From contig PMLJ01000012.1 in the NCBI GenBank assembly GCA_003158855.1, forward strand, positions 1,516 to 65,515: DNA of 64,000 nt, in the 5' to 3' direction. Below the pieces are notes generated by a model. The model did not search any database, was not told where the DNA came from, and saw nothing but the letters and a program-made list of their open reading frames with translations. This DNA is from Acidimicrobiaceae bacterium (GTDB taxonomy: Bacteria > Actinomycetota > Acidimicrobiia > Acidimicrobiales > RAAP-2). Below are positions 5,777 to 47,642 of this stretch, one piece after another (the stretch's first letter is position 1; every line of letters starts with the position of its first letter). The position numbers and the translations under genes were made by a program.

Positions 5777-7123
5777 TTACGCCCCTTTGATCATGGTCAG
5801 CACTTCTTGCACCCGCTGCTGGCAGGCCGCTTCGTCTGCGGCTTCCACGTTGAGGCGAAGCAGCGGTTCGGTGTTGGACGGGCGCAGGTTGAACCACCAG
5901 GGTCCGTAGTCGGCGGTGATGCCATCGAGCTCGTCGACGCTGACGCCAGCGGCCTTCAACGACGCCGCGATCCTCTCCACGGTCGCGAGCGGGTTCGCCA
6001 CCTCGGTGTTGATCTCGCCCGACGCCGCGAAACGCTTGAACGGCCGGGCCAGCTCGGAGAGCGGAAGCGTCGACTGGCTGAGCATCTCGAGCACGATGAG
6101 CGCGGTGATGATGCCCGAGTCCGCGCGGAAGTTGTCGCGGTAGTAGTAGTGGCCGGAGTGCTCGCCGCCGAAGACCGCATCGGTGTCGGCCATCACCTTC
6201 TTGATATAGCTGTGGCCCACCCGCGTGCGGATCGCGACGCCGCCGGCTGCTTCGATCGACTCCGGCACGGACTTCGAGCAGATCAGGTTGTAGAGGATCT
6301 TGGCGCCGGGGTTGCGCTTCAGCATCGCGGTCGCCACCATGGCCGTGGTCGTGGACCCGCTGATCGGCTGGGCCTTCTCGTCGATCAGGAAGACGCGGTC
6401 GGCGTCGCCGTCAAAGGCCAGCCCCACGTCGGCGCCGGTTTCGAGGACCCGGCGCTGGAGATCACGGATGTTCTCCGGGTTGATCGGATCGGCGGGGTGG
6501 TTCGGAAACGTTCCGTCGAGGGCCTCGTAGATGATCTCGACGTCGAAGGGCAGGTCCCGGAAGATCTCGGGCACGATGAAGCCGCCCATCCCGTTGGCGG
6601 TGTCGGCGACGATGCTGAGGTGGCGCAGGGTGGAGCGGTCGACGAACGAGTGCACGTGGCGCACCCACTCGGCCATGAGGTCGATCTTCTTGTACGGCGC
6701 CGCGTCGCCCGAGGCGGGCTCGTCGTAGTAGGTGTTGGCCATCGCCTCGATCTCGACGAGGCCGGTGTCGACGCCGACGGGCTTGGCTCCCGCGAGGCAG
6801 AGCTTGATCCCGTTGTACTGGGCGGGGTTGTGCGAGGCGGTGAACATCGCGCCCGGCGCGTCGAGGTGGCCCGAGGCGTAGTAGAGGAAGTCCGTTGAGG
6901 CGAGACCGAGGTCGAGGACCTCGACGCCGACGTGGCGCGCGCCGTCGGCGAAGGCTTCGCAGAGGCTCACCCCCGAGGGGCGCATGTCGCGCGCGATGAC
7001 GACCCGGGGGGCGCCGACGAACGTGGCGAAGGCCGATCCGACGGCGCGGGCCAGCCGTTCGTTGAGTTGATCGGGGTAGGTGCCCCTGATGTCGTAAGCC
7101 TTGAAGATGTCAGTTGTGTCCAC
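5777..7123 (-). CDS. manB: Phosphomannomutase/phosphoglucomutase
   Basis: IFKAYDIRG, FTASHNP (phospho-Ser), FDGDADR and GGEHSGH motifs. GTG start at 7123 inferred. Confidence 0.95.
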   Translation of the reverse strand: MDTTDIFKAYDIRGTYPDQLNERLARAVGSAFATFVGAPRVVIARDMRPSGVSLCEAFADGARHVGVEVLDLGLASTDFLYYASGHLDAPGAMFTASHNPAQYNGIKLCLAGAKPVGVDTGLVEIEAMANTYYDEPASGDAAPYKKIDLMAEWVRHVHSFVDRSTLRHLSIVADTANGMGGFIVPEIFRDLPFDVEIIYEALDGTFPNHPADPINPENIRDLQRRVLETGADVGLAFDGDADRVFLIDEKAQPISGSTTTAMVATAMLKRNPGAKILYNLICSKSVPESIEAAGGVAIRTRVGHSYIKKVMADTDAVFGGEHSGHYYYRDNFRADSGIITALIVLEMLSQSTLPLSELARPFKRFAASGEINTEVANPLATVERIAASLKAAGVSVDELDGITADYGPWWFNLRPSNTEPLLRLNVEAADEAACQQRVQEVLTMIKGA

Positions 7124-42015: not shown

Positions 42016-42086
42016 CGAATGACTTGAGAAGGTTAATACCAACCAGCAACACTAGAGCCTGTAACCCTTATAAAGAAAGCCGCGCC

Positions 42087-42788
42087 GTGACCACAGCTCC
42101 CAGCCTAAAGTCCTACATCGCCATCGTTGACGATGACGGGGCGATCCGGACCGCGCTCGGGCGGGCGCTTCGCATGGAGGACTACGAGGTCGAGCTCTTC
42201 GAGGACGGGATGAGCGCCCTCAAGTCCATTCAGTTGAGGGCCCCCGACGCCATCGTCCTCGACCTCCAACTCCCCGATATCGACGGGTTGGAGATCTGCC
42301 GTCGGATCCGGCGCGCCGGCGACTCGACGCCAATCCTGATGCTCACCGCCCGCGACGCCGTGAACGACCGCGTCGAAGGCCTCGACGTCGGAGCCGACGA
42401 CTACCTCGTGAAGCCCTTCGACCTCGCCGAGTTGCTGGCGCGGTTGCGGGCGCTGCTTCGGCGTCGAAGCGTCGGCGAAGGCGACGAGTTCGTGCTTCGC
42501 TTCGAGGACCTGACCCTCAATCCCCACACCCGCGAGGTTCACCGCGGAGCCCGGAGTATCGAGCTCACGAAGATCGAATTCGATCTGCTCGAGCTGTTCC
42601 TGCAGCACCCGCGCCAGGTGCTCACCCGTGACCAGATCCTCGACCTGGTCTGGGGCTACAACTTCGACTCGGGCACCAACTCCCTCGCCGTCTACATCGG
42701 CTACTTGCGACGCAAGCTCGAAGAGGGTGACGAGGCCCGCCTCATCCAGACCGTGCGCGGTGTTGGATACGCACTTCGCCAGTCGTGA
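42087..42788 (+). CDS. OmpR-family response regulator (MprA-like)
   Basis: IVDDD, VLDLQLP (phospho-Asp), LTAR, DDYLVKPF and winged-helix TVRGVGY motifs. GTG start at 42087. Confidence 0.96.
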   Translation: MTTAPSLKSYIAIVDDDGAIRTALGRALRMEDYEVELFEDGMSALKSIQLRAPDAIVLDLQLPDIDGLEICRRIRRAGDSTPILMLTARDAVNDRVEGLDVGADDYLVKPFDLAELLARLRALLRRRSVGEGDEFVLRFEDLTLNPHTREVHRGARSIELTKIEFDLLELFLQHPRQVLTRDQILDLVWGYNFDSGTNSLAVYIGYLRRKLEEGDEARLIQTVRGVGYALRQS

Positions 42789-44131
42789 CCTTTCGAAGCC
42801 GCGTCATCGCCGCCACCGTCGCGGCGGCTGCCCTCGCGGTCGTTCTGGCCTGCCTCGCCTCGTTTGTCAGCACGCGCAGCGCCCTCATGCACTCGGTGGA
42901 CGAGTCGCTCCTCCAGGCCTCCCACGGACCCATCAACGCCGACGGCGCTGACGATACCCACTACGGTTCCTTCACCGAACTGGTCCTCGCGAACGGGCAG
43001 ACCATCCCGACGTCGGGCGTCCCCATTGACGACACGATTCGCTCATACGCGAAGGGCAAGTCCGGCCAAGTGCTTCGCACCGTTGAAATCGGCAACCAGT
43101 GGTACCGCGAACTGATCGTGCCCCTGCCCGCCAAGTCGCTCGTCAGCTGTTCTTCCGGAATCTGCGAGATCAAGTCCACGTCCGCCCAGCTCTACGTCGT
43201 GAACGTGACGGGCCAGGTCAGCGAACTAAGGAAGCTCGTACGGACCTTGCTGCTCGTCGCGGCGGGAGGACTACTGCTGGCGCTCGCGCTCGGCGTGATC
43301 CTCGCCCGCGCGGCCCTTCATCCGCTCGAGGAGGTCACGGACGAGATTGAGACGATCACCGAGACCAGTGACATGCGTCGTCGGCTCGAAGAGGGCGACG
43401 CCGACGAGCTGGGTCGGCTGCGCCGGGTCTTCAACCGGCTCTTGAGCTCGGTCGAGAGCAGCCAGAACCTCCAACGCCAGCTGGTGCTCGACGCGAGCCA
43501 CGAGCTGCGCACCCCCCTCACGTCGCTGCGCACGAACGCGCAGGTGCTGTCGCGGGCCAACGAACTGGACCCCGATGACCTGCGCCAACTCACCAACGAC
43601 ATGGTGACCCAGGTCGACGAGCTGGCGGCACTCGTCACCGATCTGGGCGAGCTCGCGCGCGGCGAACGCAGCGAGGGCGCTATCGACGAGCTGCGGCTCG
43701 ACGAGTGCGTCGACGAGTGCGTCGACACCGCCAGAACGTACGCGCGGATCAAGGACATCTCGATCGACGCCACCGTCGAGCGCTCGACGGTGCTGGGCCG
43801 GCGCGACCGGCTCATCCGCGCGGTGAGCAACCTGCTCACGAACGCCGTGAAGTTCACCCCGGTCGGCGGCCAGATTCACGTCGCGTCCCACGGCGGCACC
43901 ATCAGCGTGAGCGACAGCGGACCGGGCATCAGCGACGAGGACCTGCCCTACGTCTTCAATCGGTTCTGGCGTTCGGCGTCGTCGCGCTCGCTGCCCGGGT
44001 CCGGATTGGGCCTCTCCATCGTGGCCCAGGTGGTCGCGGAGTTCCAGGGTACCGTCTCGGTCGATCGCGATCCCGTCCTCGGCGGCGCACGTTTCACGGT
44101 GACCCTGCCCACTCCCGCATTCGAAGAGTAA
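42785..44131 (+). CDS. HAMP-containing sensor histidine kinase (MprB-like)
   Basis: Two TM helices, HAMP, DASHELRTP, NAVKF, DSGPGI, GSGLGL; GTGA overlap with the regulator. Confidence 0.96.
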   Translation: MTFRSRVIAATVAAAALAVVLACLASFVSTRSALMHSVDESLLQASHGPINADGADDTHYGSFTELVLANGQTIPTSGVPIDDTIRSYAKGKSGQVLRTVEIGNQWYRELIVPLPAKSLVSCSSGICEIKSTSAQLYVVNVTGQVSELRKLVRTLLLVAAGGLLLALALGVILARAALHPLEEVTDEIETITETSDMRRRLEEGDADELGRLRRVFNRLLSSVESSQNLQRQLVLDASHELRTPLTSLRTNAQVLSRANELDPDDLRQLTNDMVTQVDELAALVTDLGELARGERSEGAIDELRLDECVDECVDTARTYARIKDISIDATVERSTVLGRRDRLIRAVSNLLTNAVKFTPVGGQIHVASHGGTISVSDSGPGISDEDLPYVFNRFWRSASSRSLPGSGLGLSIVAQVVAEFQGTVSVDRDPVLGGARFTVTLPTPAFEE

Positions 44132-44218: not shown

Positions 44219-44530
44219 ATGAGCCCCTCCATTCGAACCCCCCAGCAACGCGACCGCCGATTCGCGCGAGTACGCAATCTGACGATGTCCATCCTTCTGG
44301 GTTCCGGCGTCGCCTCGGCCTTGTTCGTTGGTTACGCCGCGACCACCGCCAAGCCGGTGTCCACCACGACCCCCAGTCCGACGACGTCAAGCACGACGAT
44401 GGCGACGACCACGACCCGCGGATCATCGCACAGCACCTCGTCAACGACGTACTCGCCGCCCACGACCGTGCCGGTCACGGTCACCACCGTCTGCACCACG
44501 ACCCCGTCGGGCACGACGGTTTGCCACTAG
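44219..44530 (+). CDS. Small membrane-anchored Thr/Ser-rich protein with C-terminal Cys pair
   Basis: Basic N-terminus, one hydrophobic helix, low-complexity Thr/Ser/Pro linker, ends VCTTTPSGTTVCH; first gene of the operon. Confidence 0.8.
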   Translation: MSPSIRTPQQRDRRFARVRNLTMSILLGSGVASALFVGYAATTAKPVSTTTPSPTTSSTTMATTTTRGSSHSTSSTTYSPPTTVPVTVTTVCTTTPSGTTVCH

Positions 44531-44537
44531 GTGCCAG

Positions 44538-45440
44538 ATGAACTTCAAGATATGGGGACTCACCGGTTCACTCAACACCGAGCGTGAGGACCAGTTGGCC
44601 TTCGCCGAGGAACGGCTCTGGCACTGGATCGACGCCGTCGACGCCGCGTGCAATCGGTTCCGACTCGACTCGGAGATCACCCGCTTGAATTCGCTCCACG
44701 ACGAGCCCGTCGCAGTGAGCGACACCTTCGCGCTCGCGCTCGACGCCGCGCTTCGCGCGTCGGCAGCCACCGGAGGCCTCTGCGATCCCACGGTGCTCGA
44801 CTCGCTCCTCGCGCTCGGCTACGACCGCGACTACGACGAGCTGGTGACGCAGGTGAACCCCGCCCCGCTCGCGACGAGGCCGTCGCCAGGCCCGCGCGCC
44901 ATCACCTTCGACCGCGTCGAGCAGACCGTGGCGCTCGCTCCGGGTTGCCGGCTGGACCTCGGAGCGAGCGCCAAGGCGCTGGTGGCGGACCTCGTCGCCG
45001 CGGACACCGCCGCGTTCGGAGGGGTCGTCGTCGAGTTGGGCGGCGACGTCGCCGTTCGAGGACGGGGTCCCACAGGACCCTGGGTGATCGGCGTCTCTGA
45101 TTCGCTCACGATCACCGGGGACGAACCCCGAGTCAGCTTCACCAACGGCGGGATCGCGACCTCGTCGTGCGTCACGCGCAGCTGGAACGCGGGCGGAACG
45201 ACCGTGAACCACATCATTGACCCGCGCACCGGCTCGTTCGCCAAAGGGACCTACGCGACCGCGACGGTGAGTGCATCGAGCTGCGTCGTCGCGAATGCCT
45301 TCGCGACCGCCGCCCTCCTGTGGGACGAGGAAGCCGCCTTCCACATCCCCCAGGCCGGCTGGTCCGGCCGGCTGGTGCGCCGCGACGGTAAGGTCGACTT
45401 CGTAGGTGGCTGGCCCTTGGAAGAAACGTTGAATCCATGA
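44538..45440 (+). CDS. apbE: FAD:protein FMN transferase (ApbE family), no signal peptide
   Basis: RFRLDSEITRLN, DPTV, DLGASAK, ELGGDV, ATSS, HIIDPRTG and ANAFATA motifs. Confidence 0.92.
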   Translation: MNFKIWGLTGSLNTEREDQLAFAEERLWHWIDAVDAACNRFRLDSEITRLNSLHDEPVAVSDTFALALDAALRASAATGGLCDPTVLDSLLALGYDRDYDELVTQVNPAPLATRPSPGPRAITFDRVEQTVALAPGCRLDLGASAKALVADLVAADTAAFGGVVVELGGDVAVRGRGPTGPWVIGVSDSLTITGDEPRVSFTNGGIATSSCVTRSWNAGGTTVNHIIDPRTGSFAKGTYATATVSASSCVVANAFATAALLWDEEAAFHIPQAGWSGRLVRRDGKVDFVGGWPLEETLNP

Positions 45441-46129
45441 TAGCACTCACGACGCCATACCTCTGGTACACGACGCGCGCGACCGGCATGGTCGCTCTCA
45501 TCCTCTTCACCCTCGTCGCCTCGCTCGGCACGCTGGTCGCCAACCGGATCGGCGGCACCATCGTCGGTCGCTTCGAGATCAACGAGCTCCACCGCTCGCT
45601 CTCGATGGTGGCGGTGACCTTCCTCGTGATCCACATACTCACGACCGTGCTGGACAGTTACGTGGCCACCGGATGGATATCGGCCTTCGTGCCCATGACG
45701 TCGGCCTACAAGCGACTGGCGGTGGGCATCGGCGCGGTCGCCTTCGACCTGATCCTGGCGGTATGGATCTCGAGCCTGCTCAAGCTGCGCATCGCGAACA
45801 CGACGTGGCGCTTCATCCACTGGTTCAGCTGGATGGGATTCGCGACCGCGCTGGTGCACGGCTACATGACCGGCACCGACAGCCGCTCCGGCTTCGGGCT
45901 CGTCGTGGTCGCCTCATGCGCCGCGGTCGTCGCCTGCGCCGCGTTGTGGCGTTTCTTCGGTCGACCGACCCGGGCGGCGGGGAGAACCGCTCTTTCGCCG
46001 CTCGCGACGACCAAGGCCGGGCCGCGCGCGACGCGCGCGACTCCCGTGCCGCCCCGGGCGGCCCCTCCCGCGTCGCGGCCGTTTCCGACCAGCCCCGCGC
46101 GGCCCGCGAAACAACGAGGCCCGCGGTGA
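45437..46129 (+). CDS. Ferric reductase-like/MsrQ-like di-heme cytochrome b membrane protein
   Basis: WYTTRATG, four His in TM helices (LHRSL, IHILT, WRFIHW, VHGY); ATGA overlap with apbE. Confidence 0.85.
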   Translation: MIALTTPYLWYTTRATGMVALILFTLVASLGTLVANRIGGTIVGRFEINELHRSLSMVAVTFLVIHILTTVLDSYVATGWISAFVPMTSAYKRLAVGIGAVAFDLILAVWISSLLKLRIANTTWRFIHWFSWMGFATALVHGYMTGTDSRSGFGLVVVASCAAVVACAALWRFFGRPTRAAGRTALSPLATTKAGPRATRATPVPPRAAPPASRPFPTSPARPAKQRGPR

Positions 46130-47403
46130 TTCGTCCAAACTCCCTCCCCCGTCTGATGCACGCGGCATCCGACCGTCCACTCACCTTGGCCCTGCACGAG
46201 GCGGCGTTCGCGTCGTCGACGTCGGTGACCTCCCTGCTGGACGAGCTCGAGGCGTCCGGTCTCACGGGACGCGGTGGCGCGGGATTCCCGACCGCGCTAA
46301 AGGCCCGCCTCATTCGCGAACAGCGGGGGCACAACAAATTCATGGTGGTGAACGCCATGGAGGGCGAGCCCGCCTCCCACAAGGATCAGACACTGCTGAG
46401 CGCGAACCCTCACCTCGTGCTCGACGGCGCGGAGTACCTCGCTTCCATGATCGGCGCCAACAACATCGCCGTCTGCGTCGCGCGCGACAACCCCTCGGTG
46501 GTCAATCACGTCGGGCGGGCGATCCACGAGCGCACGAGGCGAAGCTTGCGCGGTCCGAAGCTCGAACTTCACACTCCCCCGTGGCGCTACGTCGCCGGGG
46601 AAGAGTCCGCACTCGTGCACTGGCTGGACGACAACGAGTCGCTGCCCCAGTACCGACCCAACCGCCCTCACATCTTGAAGATCGGCCACGGCCCCGCACT
46701 CGTCGACAACGCCGAGACGTGCGCGAACGTTGGCCTCATCGGACGCTACGGCGCCCAGTGGTACCGCAGCCTCGGCACCGCCGCAACCCCGGGCAGCACC
46801 CTGGTGTCGGTGACGGGCGCGGTGGACCATCCGACGGTCGTCGAGGTCGAACTCGGGACACCGCTTCGCTCGATCCTGGCGACGGCCGGTGCGGACCTCG
46901 ACCCCCAGGCGGTGCTACTCGGGGGCTACGGAGGCAGTTGGCTCGGCGCGTCGCACCTCGACGTCGCCTACGACAACGAGTCGTTGAAGCCCGTCGGGGT
47001 CTCGACGGGCGCCGGGGTGATCGTGGTACTTCCCAGGAGCGCGTGCGGAATCGTCGAGACCCAGCGGATCGTTCACTGGATGGCGAACGAGAGCGCGCGC
47101 CAGTGCGGCCCGTGCGCCTTCGGGCTGCCCGCGCTCGCTGAGGACCTCTCGCACATCGCGCACCAGTCACGCGACCCCAAGGCCGCCCACGTCCGCCTGG
47201 TCGAGCGCTGCGCGGTCATCGAGGGCCGCGGGGCGTGCCGCCACCCCGACGGCGTCATTCGCTTGGTGCGCTCGGCGCTCGAGGTTTTCACCGACGACTT
47301 CTCGAACCACGTACGCGGGTCGTTCTGCAATGGAACGCGCGCGACGAGGCACTTCGCGACCGTTCCGTCGCTCGAGCGAGAGGAGGAGCTCGTATGGGAG
47401 TGA
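46126..47403 (+). CDS. Stand-alone NuoF-like FMN/NAD(P)H-binding Fe-S flavoprotein
   Basis: SGLTGRGGAGFPT, NAMEGEP, YVAGEESA, NAET, SLBB region, ESARQCGPC...GAC. No other nuo genes nearby. Confidence 0.88.
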   Translation: MIRPNSLPRLMHAASDRPLTLALHEAAFASSTSVTSLLDELEASGLTGRGGAGFPTALKARLIREQRGHNKFMVVNAMEGEPASHKDQTLLSANPHLVLDGAEYLASMIGANNIAVCVARDNPSVVNHVGRAIHERTRRSLRGPKLELHTPPWRYVAGEESALVHWLDDNESLPQYRPNRPHILKIGHGPALVDNAETCANVGLIGRYGAQWYRSLGTAATPGSTLVSVTGAVDHPTVVEVELGTPLRSILATAGADLDPQAVLLGGYGGSWLGASHLDVAYDNESLKPVGVSTGAGVIVVLPRSACGIVETQRIVHWMANESARQCGPCAFGLPALAEDLSHIAHQSRDPKAAHVRLVERCAVIEGRGACRHPDGVIRLVRSALEVFTDDFSNHVRGSFCNGTRATRHFATVPSLEREEELVWE

Positions 47404-47642
47404 GACGCCGTTCCGGATCATTCGTGCTGCGGGTGAACCCGATCCTCTGCGACGGGTTCGGGCACTGCGCCGAACTCGCGCCCGAACTCGTGCAGACCGA
47501 CGAATGGGGCTATCCCATCCTGAGGAGCGAGCCGGTGCCCCTCACCGACGCGGGCGCCTACGAATCCGCGCGCTACGCCGAGCGTGGATGTCCGCGCCAG
47601 GCGCTGCACATCCACCGGATCAGCGAGAAGAAGCCTCACTAA
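47394..47642 (+). CDS. Single-cluster [3Fe-4S]-type ferredoxin
   Basis: CDGFGHC....P...WGYP...CPRQAL; the middle Cys of CxxCxxC is replaced by Phe. GAGGAGG SD. Confidence 0.88.
   Translation: MGVRRRSGSFVLRVNPILCDGFGHCAELAPELVQTDEWGYPILRSEPVPLTDAGAYESARYAERGCPRQALHIHRISEKKPH

Follow-up and report, generated by a model that had tools for sequence, protein, structure and literature searches.

Which protein does an ApbE flavin transferase modify when its operon holds neither a gene for a flavin mononucleotide (FMN)-binding domain nor a canonical flavinylation motif? This question is raised by a locus in a 64,000-nt stretch of an Acidimicrobiaceae genome (assembly GCA_003158855.1, contig PMLJ01000012.1, positions 1,516 to 65,515 of the forward strand; hereafter the window), in which a small gene (44219..44530, + strand, 103 amino acids) lies directly upstream of apbE. 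Sequence comparison points to its product as a candidate ApbE substrate that lacks a flavin-binding domain. We propose that this protein is the tethered flavin carrier of a conduit driven by NAD(P)H (reduced nicotinamide adenine dinucleotide or its phosphate), and that the adjacent ApbE would flavinylate it on a C-terminal hairpin, probably at Ser97; we put the probability of this reading at roughly 0.55.

A small anchored protein with two conserved ends

The small gene is real and under selection. Its codon-position GC contents are 0.43/0.71/0.84, and the third-position value (GC3) matches that of the neighbouring genes (0.82-0.89), which the overlapping frames do not; together with the conservation seen in homologues, this rules out a spurious open reading frame (ORF) or an overlapping-frame artefact. 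A scan of the 87-nt gap 5' of the gene for promoters, terminators and repeats gave nothing informative. The protein begins with an Arg-rich helix (residues 1-22, N-terminus MSPSIRTPQQRDRRFARVRNLT) that is predicted to be cytoplasmic, followed by a hydrophobic segment that forms the membrane anchor (residues 23-43), a linker of 48 residues (residues 44-91; S+T 60%, S+T+P 73%) and twelve final residues, C92-T-T-T-P-S97-G-T-T-V-C102-H (codons at 44492..44527, + strand), predicted to form a conserved Cys-bracketed hairpin. An earlier sequence-only reading of the window had described this architecture, with a Thr/Ser stalk of about 45 residues and a terminal two-Cys segment around PSGTT, and the translation confirms it. 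Pfam returned no match for the protein at E <= 0.01. The FMN-binding fold PF04205 is absent both by Pfam and from an AlphaFold2 model, in which a disordered linker connects a helix to a hairpin of 11 residues; the earlier suggestion that the putative substrate has no folded FMN-binding domain was thus borne out.

A search of a 5.8-billion-protein collection retrieved 82 homologues, all metagenomic, for a set of 83 sequences including the window protein. Most of the taxon-labelled ones derive from Acidimicrobiales metagenome-assembled genomes, and the 82 are unnamed, 'hypothetical' or annotated with something unrelated to flavin chemistry. The N-terminal RTPQQRDRRFARVRRLT is common to 81 of the 83 sequences. 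At the other end, 77 (all the complete ones) terminate in C-x3-[PA]-S-G-x3-C-x, and the remaining six have a truncated or divergent C-terminus. Within the loop, C92, P96, S97, G98 and C102 are invariant in 77/77 complete homologues, the position two before the Pro is always S or T, and the final residue after the second Cys is Tyr, His or Phe in 64/77 (His in 13/77). Between these conserved ends the linker varies freely in length and sequence, for a total protein length of 71-163 amino acids. The stop position is conserved, and purifying selection is strong at both ends of the protein in at least 77 homologues.

This pattern bears directly on the idea that the ORF is spurious or a decaying FMN_bind remnant, in which anchor and linker were kept and the domain was lost. 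Such a history would be suggested by the FMN_bind protein of the same genome, which has the same design of an anchor and a Thr-rich linker. Nevertheless, it does not fit purifying selection at both ends in at least 77 homologues, a fixed stop, coding GC3 and a confidently predicted hairpin, nor a family that is far larger than one genus (see below). Conservation effectively refutes decay, and we give this explanation almost no weight.

The AlphaFold2 model, built with a 64-sequence alignment, contains an unbroken helix over residues 8-43 (predicted local distance difference test, pLDDT, 91-98), a low-confidence linker (pLDDT 46-77) and two strands, residues 92-94 (pLDDT ~94) and 100-102 (pLDDT ~87). 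Both cysteines lie on the facing strands, and the turn is formed by T95-P-S-G-T99 with Ser97 at its apex. The model therefore supports the Cys-closed loop, as it had been drawn from the letters alone, as a predicted beta-hairpin. The C92-C102 disulfide would probably be formed outside the cell; the genome encodes two VKOR homologues, which makes extracytoplasmic disulfide formation plausible.

The SGGS-tail family and its Cys-loop variant

The window ApbE was searched against 151 genomes of the order and the best 20 loci were compared, along with two further locus sets: 18 of the window's genus and 20 that a search with the operon's NuoF-like protein turned up in other families of the phylum. 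In the locus sets compared, a cluster of apbE with genes for an MsrQ-like membrane protein, a NuoF-like protein and a ferredoxin recurs across Acidimicrobiales and Actinomycetota. A tblastn search with the genome's own FMN_bind domain found an FMN_bind gene in none of 38 related loci. In other genera, a small ORF directly upstream of apbE is present at most loci that have the full cluster, and in two loci the small ORF sits between apbE and the membrane-protein gene. The ORFs in this slot encode an Arg-rich motif (RDAGLRRVSRLTRW or a close variant), a single hydrophobic helix and a low-complexity S/T/A/P/G/Q linker, and their exact C-termini read VTSGGS, VVSGGS, AVSGGS, VVSGGT, TSGAS and similar.

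A k-mer search with an SGGT-type orthologue gave 8 close relatives only, and the family was collected by gene context instead. Searching a collection of species genomes with a 7-sequence alignment of the membrane protein yielded at least 591 loci, most of them in Solirubrobacterales/Thermoleophilia and the others in Acidimicrobiia, Gaiellaceae, Dormibacterota and Limnocylindria. Of the 80 top-ranked loci, 70 carry, on the same strand and upstream of the membrane-protein gene, an ORF whose exact C-terminus is [ST]G[GA][ST] (VSGGS in 53 of these 70 ORFs); the background count for this ending was 5 of 7198 ORFs, or 5 of the ~7100 other six-frame ORFs of at least 45 amino acids. At E <= 1e-3, a family profile built from 68 tail proteins then matched 1773 representatives of clusters at 50% identity; 566 of them passed E <= 1e-10. 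Among the best 150 profile matches, the motif forms the C-terminus of 136 (VSGGS in 122); the other 14 lack it, and several of these stop abruptly just before the motif position. Pfam and NCBIfam hold no model for the tail proteins and returned only sub-threshold low-complexity noise, so that assignment to a known family was rejected.

Further features of this family were observed along the way. The linkers of SGGS-type proteins (L093-L172) contain a conserved L-x-x-P-x-Q-A-P element (GLQPAAQAPVP, LQAPASAPS) ~20-40 residues before the C-terminus, and are otherwise unalignable. Two loci carry two tail genes each, in tandem in L105 (1991-2470 and 2566-3009) and each preceding a membrane-protein gene in L166 (2705-3028 and 3629-3982). 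In two Solirubrobacterales loci (L119 and L128) apbE and the genes for the MsrQ-like, NuoF-like and ferredoxin proteins are present and the small tail gene was not detected. Upstream, these loci have a large ORF ending ...RSDLSRRLGLTR and a second, possibly DprE1/DprE2-like ORF.

The canonical ApbE motif is D-x-x-[ST]-G-A-[ST], of which the last residue is flavinylated. Seven-residue flavinylation tags are modified best at protein termini, the D-to-A change has a minor effect, and G-to-A and A-to-V changes only lower the yield (PMC12052999). Because the motif works best at termini and tolerates such changes, V-S-G-G-S-COOH, near-canonical when set beside [ST]-G-A-[ST], appears to be a credible ApbE site.

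How does the window protein relate to these tails? When the Cys-loop and SGGS-type alignments were compared by hhalign, the N-terminal helix and anchor matched over 40 columns (96% probability, E 4.2e-9). The window gene also occupies the slot directly upstream of apbE, as in the related loci, and its product has the disordered low-complexity linker of the family. The exact C-terminus [VIT]-[ST]-G-[GA]-[ST]-COOH is absent from the window protein, and the Cys loop stands in its place in 77/77 complete homologues, which marks the protein as a derived variant and not as a typical member. In an ApbE tree, the ApbEs that adjoin Cys-loop proteins form one clade (support 98/97), all from the window's genus; the sole label exception is a copy truncated by a contig end, where the fragment also ends in the loop. 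Their sister group consists of SGG[ST]-associated ApbEs from several classes. Tails of other Acidimicrobiales read VVSGGT, VSGGTSW, VSGGTSSS and VVSGGTGGTGH, and a sister genus of the same family (L053) has the tail ...YTPPVYSSGS. Given an ApbE clade confined to one genus and tails without the loop in its relatives, the Cys loop is, on this comparison of sequences, a single-origin rebuilding of the family's C-terminal element within one Acidimicrobiales genus and not a general design. The small protein of L053 (reverse strand, ~6480-6840), encoded 5' of apbE, has an Ala/Gln-rich and not a Thr-rich linker and ends ...SYSYTPPVYSSGS; a YTPP element is common to this protein and the Cys-loop proteins.

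The candidate acceptor residue and the ApbE enzyme

None of the seven operon proteins, which include a response regulator and a histidine kinase, contains [ST]GA[ST]. Among them, [ST]G.[ST] is matched only twice, by SGTT in the small protein (residue 97) and by SGLT in the NuoF-like protein, the latter within an ordinary GRGGAGFP FMN site. This agrees with the sequence-only reading, in which SGTT was the nearest approach to a canonical motif in the operon. No conserved flavinylation motif was found among the orthologues of ApbE, the MsrQ-like membrane protein, the NuoF-like protein and the ferredoxin, and a hidden canonical motif in any of these, in the response regulator or in the kinase was rejected. 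The small protein itself lacks D-x-x-[ST]-G-A-[ST] and any upstream Asp; the nearest elements are SGTT or, in an alternative register, T-T-P-S.

Two registers were compared across the homologues: register A, [ST]94-x-[P/A]96-S97-G98, and register B, S97-G98-x-T100 (SGTT). Register A holds in 77/77 complete homologues and in 17/17 genus loci. For register B, the residue three after Ser97 is S/T in 39/77 homologues (51%), and 12/77 have no S/T between the Gly and the second Cys. In the deepest Cys-loop lineage the sequence is C-[HY]-T-[SN]-A-S-G-x-F-x-G-C-W (SGQF or SGTF), with Ala at the canonical Ala position of register A and Phe at the acceptor position of register B. A Gly also follows the presumed acceptor in extended tails elsewhere, S-G-G-T-G and T-G-S-S-G-F. 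Ser97 is favoured because it is the only invariant hydroxyl in the loop and, provided that the protein is flavinylated at all, it would be the probable acceptor. The C-terminal conservation expected of the proposed substrate was found for Cys, Pro, Ser, Gly and Cys; the SGTT register itself is not supported, given its variable acceptor position.

Modification of a Thr after the Gly (SGTT, or S-G-T by analogy with the sister genus and its SGS tails) nevertheless deserves consideration. In this case Ser97-Gly98 would correspond to the S-G of S-G-G-S, which is the most parsimonious alignment, since no dipeptide is better conserved than S-G in either family. The window protein offers T99 and T100, 65/77 homologues have at least one S/T within the three post-Gly residues, and the sister genus terminates in S-S-G-S. 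An essential acceptor is, however, expected to be invariant, and the post-Gly position varies, down to a deep subclade with SGQF or SGTF and to the homologues that have no hydroxyl there. We consider a Thr acceptor unlikely.

The window ApbE (44538..45440, + strand; FAD:protein FMN transferase, where FAD is flavin adenine dinucleotide; 300 amino acids, Pfam E 2.9e-40), whose ATG lies 7 nt past the small gene stop, can be aligned to ApbEs of known structure, among them T. maritima 1vrm and V. cholerae 6nxi. Its Ser209 matches V. cholerae Ser241, and its His225 matches His257 (the proposed general base, a position marked by the H257G mutant 6nxj); these are among three conserved ApbE active-site residues (PMC12052999). 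The counterparts of Ser209 and His225 are conserved in 142/143 and 143/143 related ApbEs, and both residues are kept in 17/17 genus ApbEs examined. At the position of V. cholerae Asp285 ('ADxxxT') the window enzyme has Asn253 (45294-45296), as do 127/143 ApbEs; the canonical ApbE of the same genome keeps the Asp (ADALAT). In Treponema Ftp the matching Asp is reportedly a metal ligand. Glu occupies this position in 16/143 ApbEs, which form an outgroup clade from clusters without NuoF. These Glu-type enzymes (L051, L052, L054; L019-L034) belong to apbE/MsrQ-like clusters devoid of NuoF-like and ferredoxin genes, and the small anchored low-complexity proteins encoded upstream there end in ...TMSEPS, ...TQTQGS and ...TASRAS, all with a C-terminal Ser. 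Four fixed differences separate the Cys-loop-associated from the SGGS-associated ApbEs (S39N, V82C, G87L and G181P), two of which flank the invariant D83-P84-T85.

These four changes near the DPT motif might also be read as a sign that the genus has given up the flavin: the Cys pair would then be the redox centre (thiol/disulfide, fed by the outer haem) or a metal site, and ApbE would have another target. The two cysteines, invariant and on facing predicted strands, and the variability of the canonical acceptor position point in the same direction. Several observations argue otherwise: apbE is kept 7 nt away, its product retains the catalytic Ser and His in each of the 17 genus members examined, no conserved candidate motif is seen in the remaining operon proteins, and P-S-G, which a pure disulfide centre does not require, is as invariant as the cysteines. 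We also know of no precedent for one-electron transfer from haem b to a disulfide in MsrQ-type systems, which counts against a Cys redox centre. Loss of the flavin is in our estimate improbable, more so than a Thr acceptor.

Alternatively, the small protein could be unmodified and contribute, as a subunit, to the structure or assembly of the MsrQ-like cytochrome, or serve as an envelope spacer. ApbE would then be a cytoplasmic enzyme that contributes to the flavin supply of the NuoF-like protein, for example as an FAD pyrophosphatase like Treponema Ftp. This would account for an ApbE without a signal peptide and with Asn in place of the active-site Asp, as well as for 9 of the 70 small genes described above, which adjoin the membrane-protein gene without apbE directly downstream; the N-terminal cytoplasmic helix, the most conserved part of the protein, would fit docking. 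But the terminal V-S-G-G-S in more than 1000 cluster representatives and the invariant P-S-G would be left unexplained, the cytoplasm is already supplied with FMN, and canonical MsrQ-like clusters hold a flavinylated anchored protein in this slot (PMC8238504). This explanation too seems unlikely to us, about on a par with the Thr acceptor.

A proposed flavin carrier and its membrane partners

The genes downstream of apbE, all on the + strand and assigned by Pfam, encode the putative partners of the small protein. The MsrQ-like/ferric-reductase-type membrane protein (PF01794; 45437..46129), whose start overlaps the apbE stop (ATGA), has four invariant His (H52, H66, H128 and H141), which are taken to be the di-haem b ligands. 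Its 55 C-terminal residues (45960-46129) are Arg/Pro/Ala/Thr-rich and have no counterpart in most orthologues, several of which (L037, L038, L043) carry long Gly/Ser-rich C-terminal tails instead. Next come a NuoF-like NAD(P)H-binding flavo-iron-sulfur protein (Complex1_51K, SLBB, NADH_4Fe-4S; PF10589; 46132..47403, start codon approximate) and a small single-cluster ferredoxin (Fer4_15; 47400..47642). Upstream of the small gene lie an OmpR-type response regulator (42024-42788) and a HAMP histidine kinase (42785-44131), likewise on the + strand and assigned by Pfam; such a pair adjoins the cluster, in either orientation, in most of 38 Acidimicrobiales and phylum-wide loci.

In the conduit that we propose, electrons would pass from NAD(P)H to the NuoF-like protein (FMN, 4Fe-4S) and on to the ferredoxin, from there to the two haems of the MsrQ-like membrane protein, and from the haems to an FMN held covalently on the tail of the small protein outside the membrane, which would deliver them to an external acceptor. 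The adjacent ApbE would join this FMN by a phosphoester to a hydroxyl residue of the C-terminal element, which would be a bare V-S-G-G-S in most Actinomycetota and, in the window's genus, the 11-residue loop C-x-[ST]-x-P-S-G-x3-C. For this loop, the register [ST]-x-[P/A]-S-G that points to Ser97 may be compared with the canonical [ST]-G-A-[ST], and the threonine of SGTT is less likely to be used. The earlier proposal that the small protein is the likely ApbE substrate thus stands in part: operon slot and the V-S-G-G-S tails of the family make it the best candidate, and the acceptor register first proposed for it is not supported.

The tail of the carrier is predicted to be extracytoplasmic. 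A net charge of +5.7 in the 20 residues before the anchor and of +1.1 after it predicts an N-in, tail-out orientation, the Thr/Pro linker is of an exported type, and a hairpin disulfide would be sensible only outside. The strongly conserved cytoplasmic helix argues for an uncleaved anchor with a docking role. A Tat (twin-arginine translocation) signal or anchor was rejected: a twin-Arg is present in 81/82 homologues and the genome has TatC, yet the consensus R-R-x-hydrophobic-hydrophobic is found in 1/82.

Several points weigh against the flavin-carrier reading, and this failure to match the Tat consensus is one of them. A second concerns the location of the enzyme: the tail is predicted to lie outside, yet ApbE leaves no room for a signal peptide, the implied first ApbE residue falling at a median of 39 nt after the small gene stop (61 loci; within 3-98 nt in 59/61). 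An N-terminal extension of ApbE was rejected as a signal peptide, the in-frame stretch from 44328 being Arg/Pro-rich and overlapping the small gene. The canonical ApbE of the same genome is signal-less as well, which suggests that this topology puzzle may extend to actinobacterial MsrQ-like systems in general; flavinylation that precedes export, or an ApbE in an unconventional place, may be ways around it. Third, Asn for the active-site Asp might mean an altered ApbE activity. Fourth, the D, G and A of the canonical D-x-x-[ST]-G-A-[ST] are missing from the loop, which has Pro at the -1 position. Fifth, if S97-G98 is aligned with the S-G of S-G-G-S, the two best-conserved residues are retained and the acceptor falls where S/T occurs in only 51% of homologues, which would leave the acceptor ambiguous or mean that flavinylation may be lost in the genus. 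Finally, a hidden Markov model of the SGGS family run against the genome itself did not detect the window protein at E <= 0.1, so that homology rests on the 40-residue N-terminal module and synteny.

A bolder version of the flavin-carrier reading would make the last 12 residues the smallest natural flavin module known: a disulfide-stapled hairpin with FMN on Ser97, held on a 48-residue tether over a di-haem protein and flavinylated before export by a signal-less, Asn-type ApbE. The aromatic residue after the second Cys (Tyr or Phe; His in 13/77) might then stack on the flavin. We regard this version as tentative, and doubtful as a whole.

Known systems offer partial parallels. MsrQ-like flavinylation clusters have been catalogued, 1797 in all, of which 31 include a NuoF-like protein (Meheust et al. 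2021, eLife, PMC8238504). Those of the NuoF subtype (PMC8238504; Huang et al. 2024) are likewise actinobacterial, combine apbE with a PF01794 di-haem protein and a PF10589 donor, and follow the same proposed logic, from a cytosolic donor through a transmembrane cytochrome to an anchored flavinylated acceptor. In contrast to the window operon and the 38 related loci, however, the published clusters typically include a gene for an FMN-binding domain, and a domain-less low-complexity protein such as the anchored partner described here is unmentioned in the papers searched on MsrQ-like clusters. Our search of the literature on ApbE flavinylation motifs and on ApbE/MsrQ-like/NuoF clusters likewise found no description of domain-less tails; the ApbE substrates described in the literature found all hold the flavin in or against a folded flavin-binding domain. 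FMN_red proteins come close, being flavinylated on an unstructured C-terminal extension and encoded by a gene adjoining apbE (Huang et al. 2024, bioRxiv 10.1101/2024.03.13.584918), but their disordered tail folds back onto a folded flavin domain beside it, and the window protein has no folded domain beyond its 11-residue hairpin. The Flavin-tag (Tong, Lee, Drenth, Fraaije 2021), as far as it is described in PMC12052999, is also a short unstructured terminal motif without a flavin fold; it was engineered with the canonical D-x-x-[ST]-G-A-[ST], whereas the natural tails end in V-S-G-G-S-COOH or, in the window variant, carry C-x-[ST]-x-P-S-G-x3-C in a hairpin.

The same genome provides a further comparison. 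Its only PF04205 gene lies on contig C15, in a cluster (L001, 698-3198, minus strand) of a NOX-like ferric reductase, a 215-residue anchored FMN_bind protein and an ApbE. Like the window protein, this FMN_bind protein combines an anchor at its N-terminus with a long Thr/Ser/Pro linker and neighbours a signal-less ApbE and a ferric-reductase-type protein. It differs in ending in a PF04205 domain with GVSGASYTS, in being paired with an ApbE that keeps its Asp, and in having a membrane partner that carries an FAD/NAD domain.

If the tails are flavinylated, widespread soil bacteria (Thermoleophilia, Acidimicrobiia and further Actinomycetota; ~1800 protein clusters and, at species level, at least 591 loci) would use a leashed flavin as the outer station of an NAD(P)H-driven conduit, a natural counterpart of the engineered Flavin-tag. 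This would also raise the question of where flavinylation occurs, given a signal-less ApbE. The Cys-loop variant is a natural experiment within this family, in which P-S-G was kept and the canonical acceptor position was not, and its modification site would reveal which residue this ApbE clade targets. Should the loop indeed be the smallest flavin module, its comparison with the bare V-S-G-G-S-COOH tails would show that covalent flavin carriers need no flavin-binding fold.

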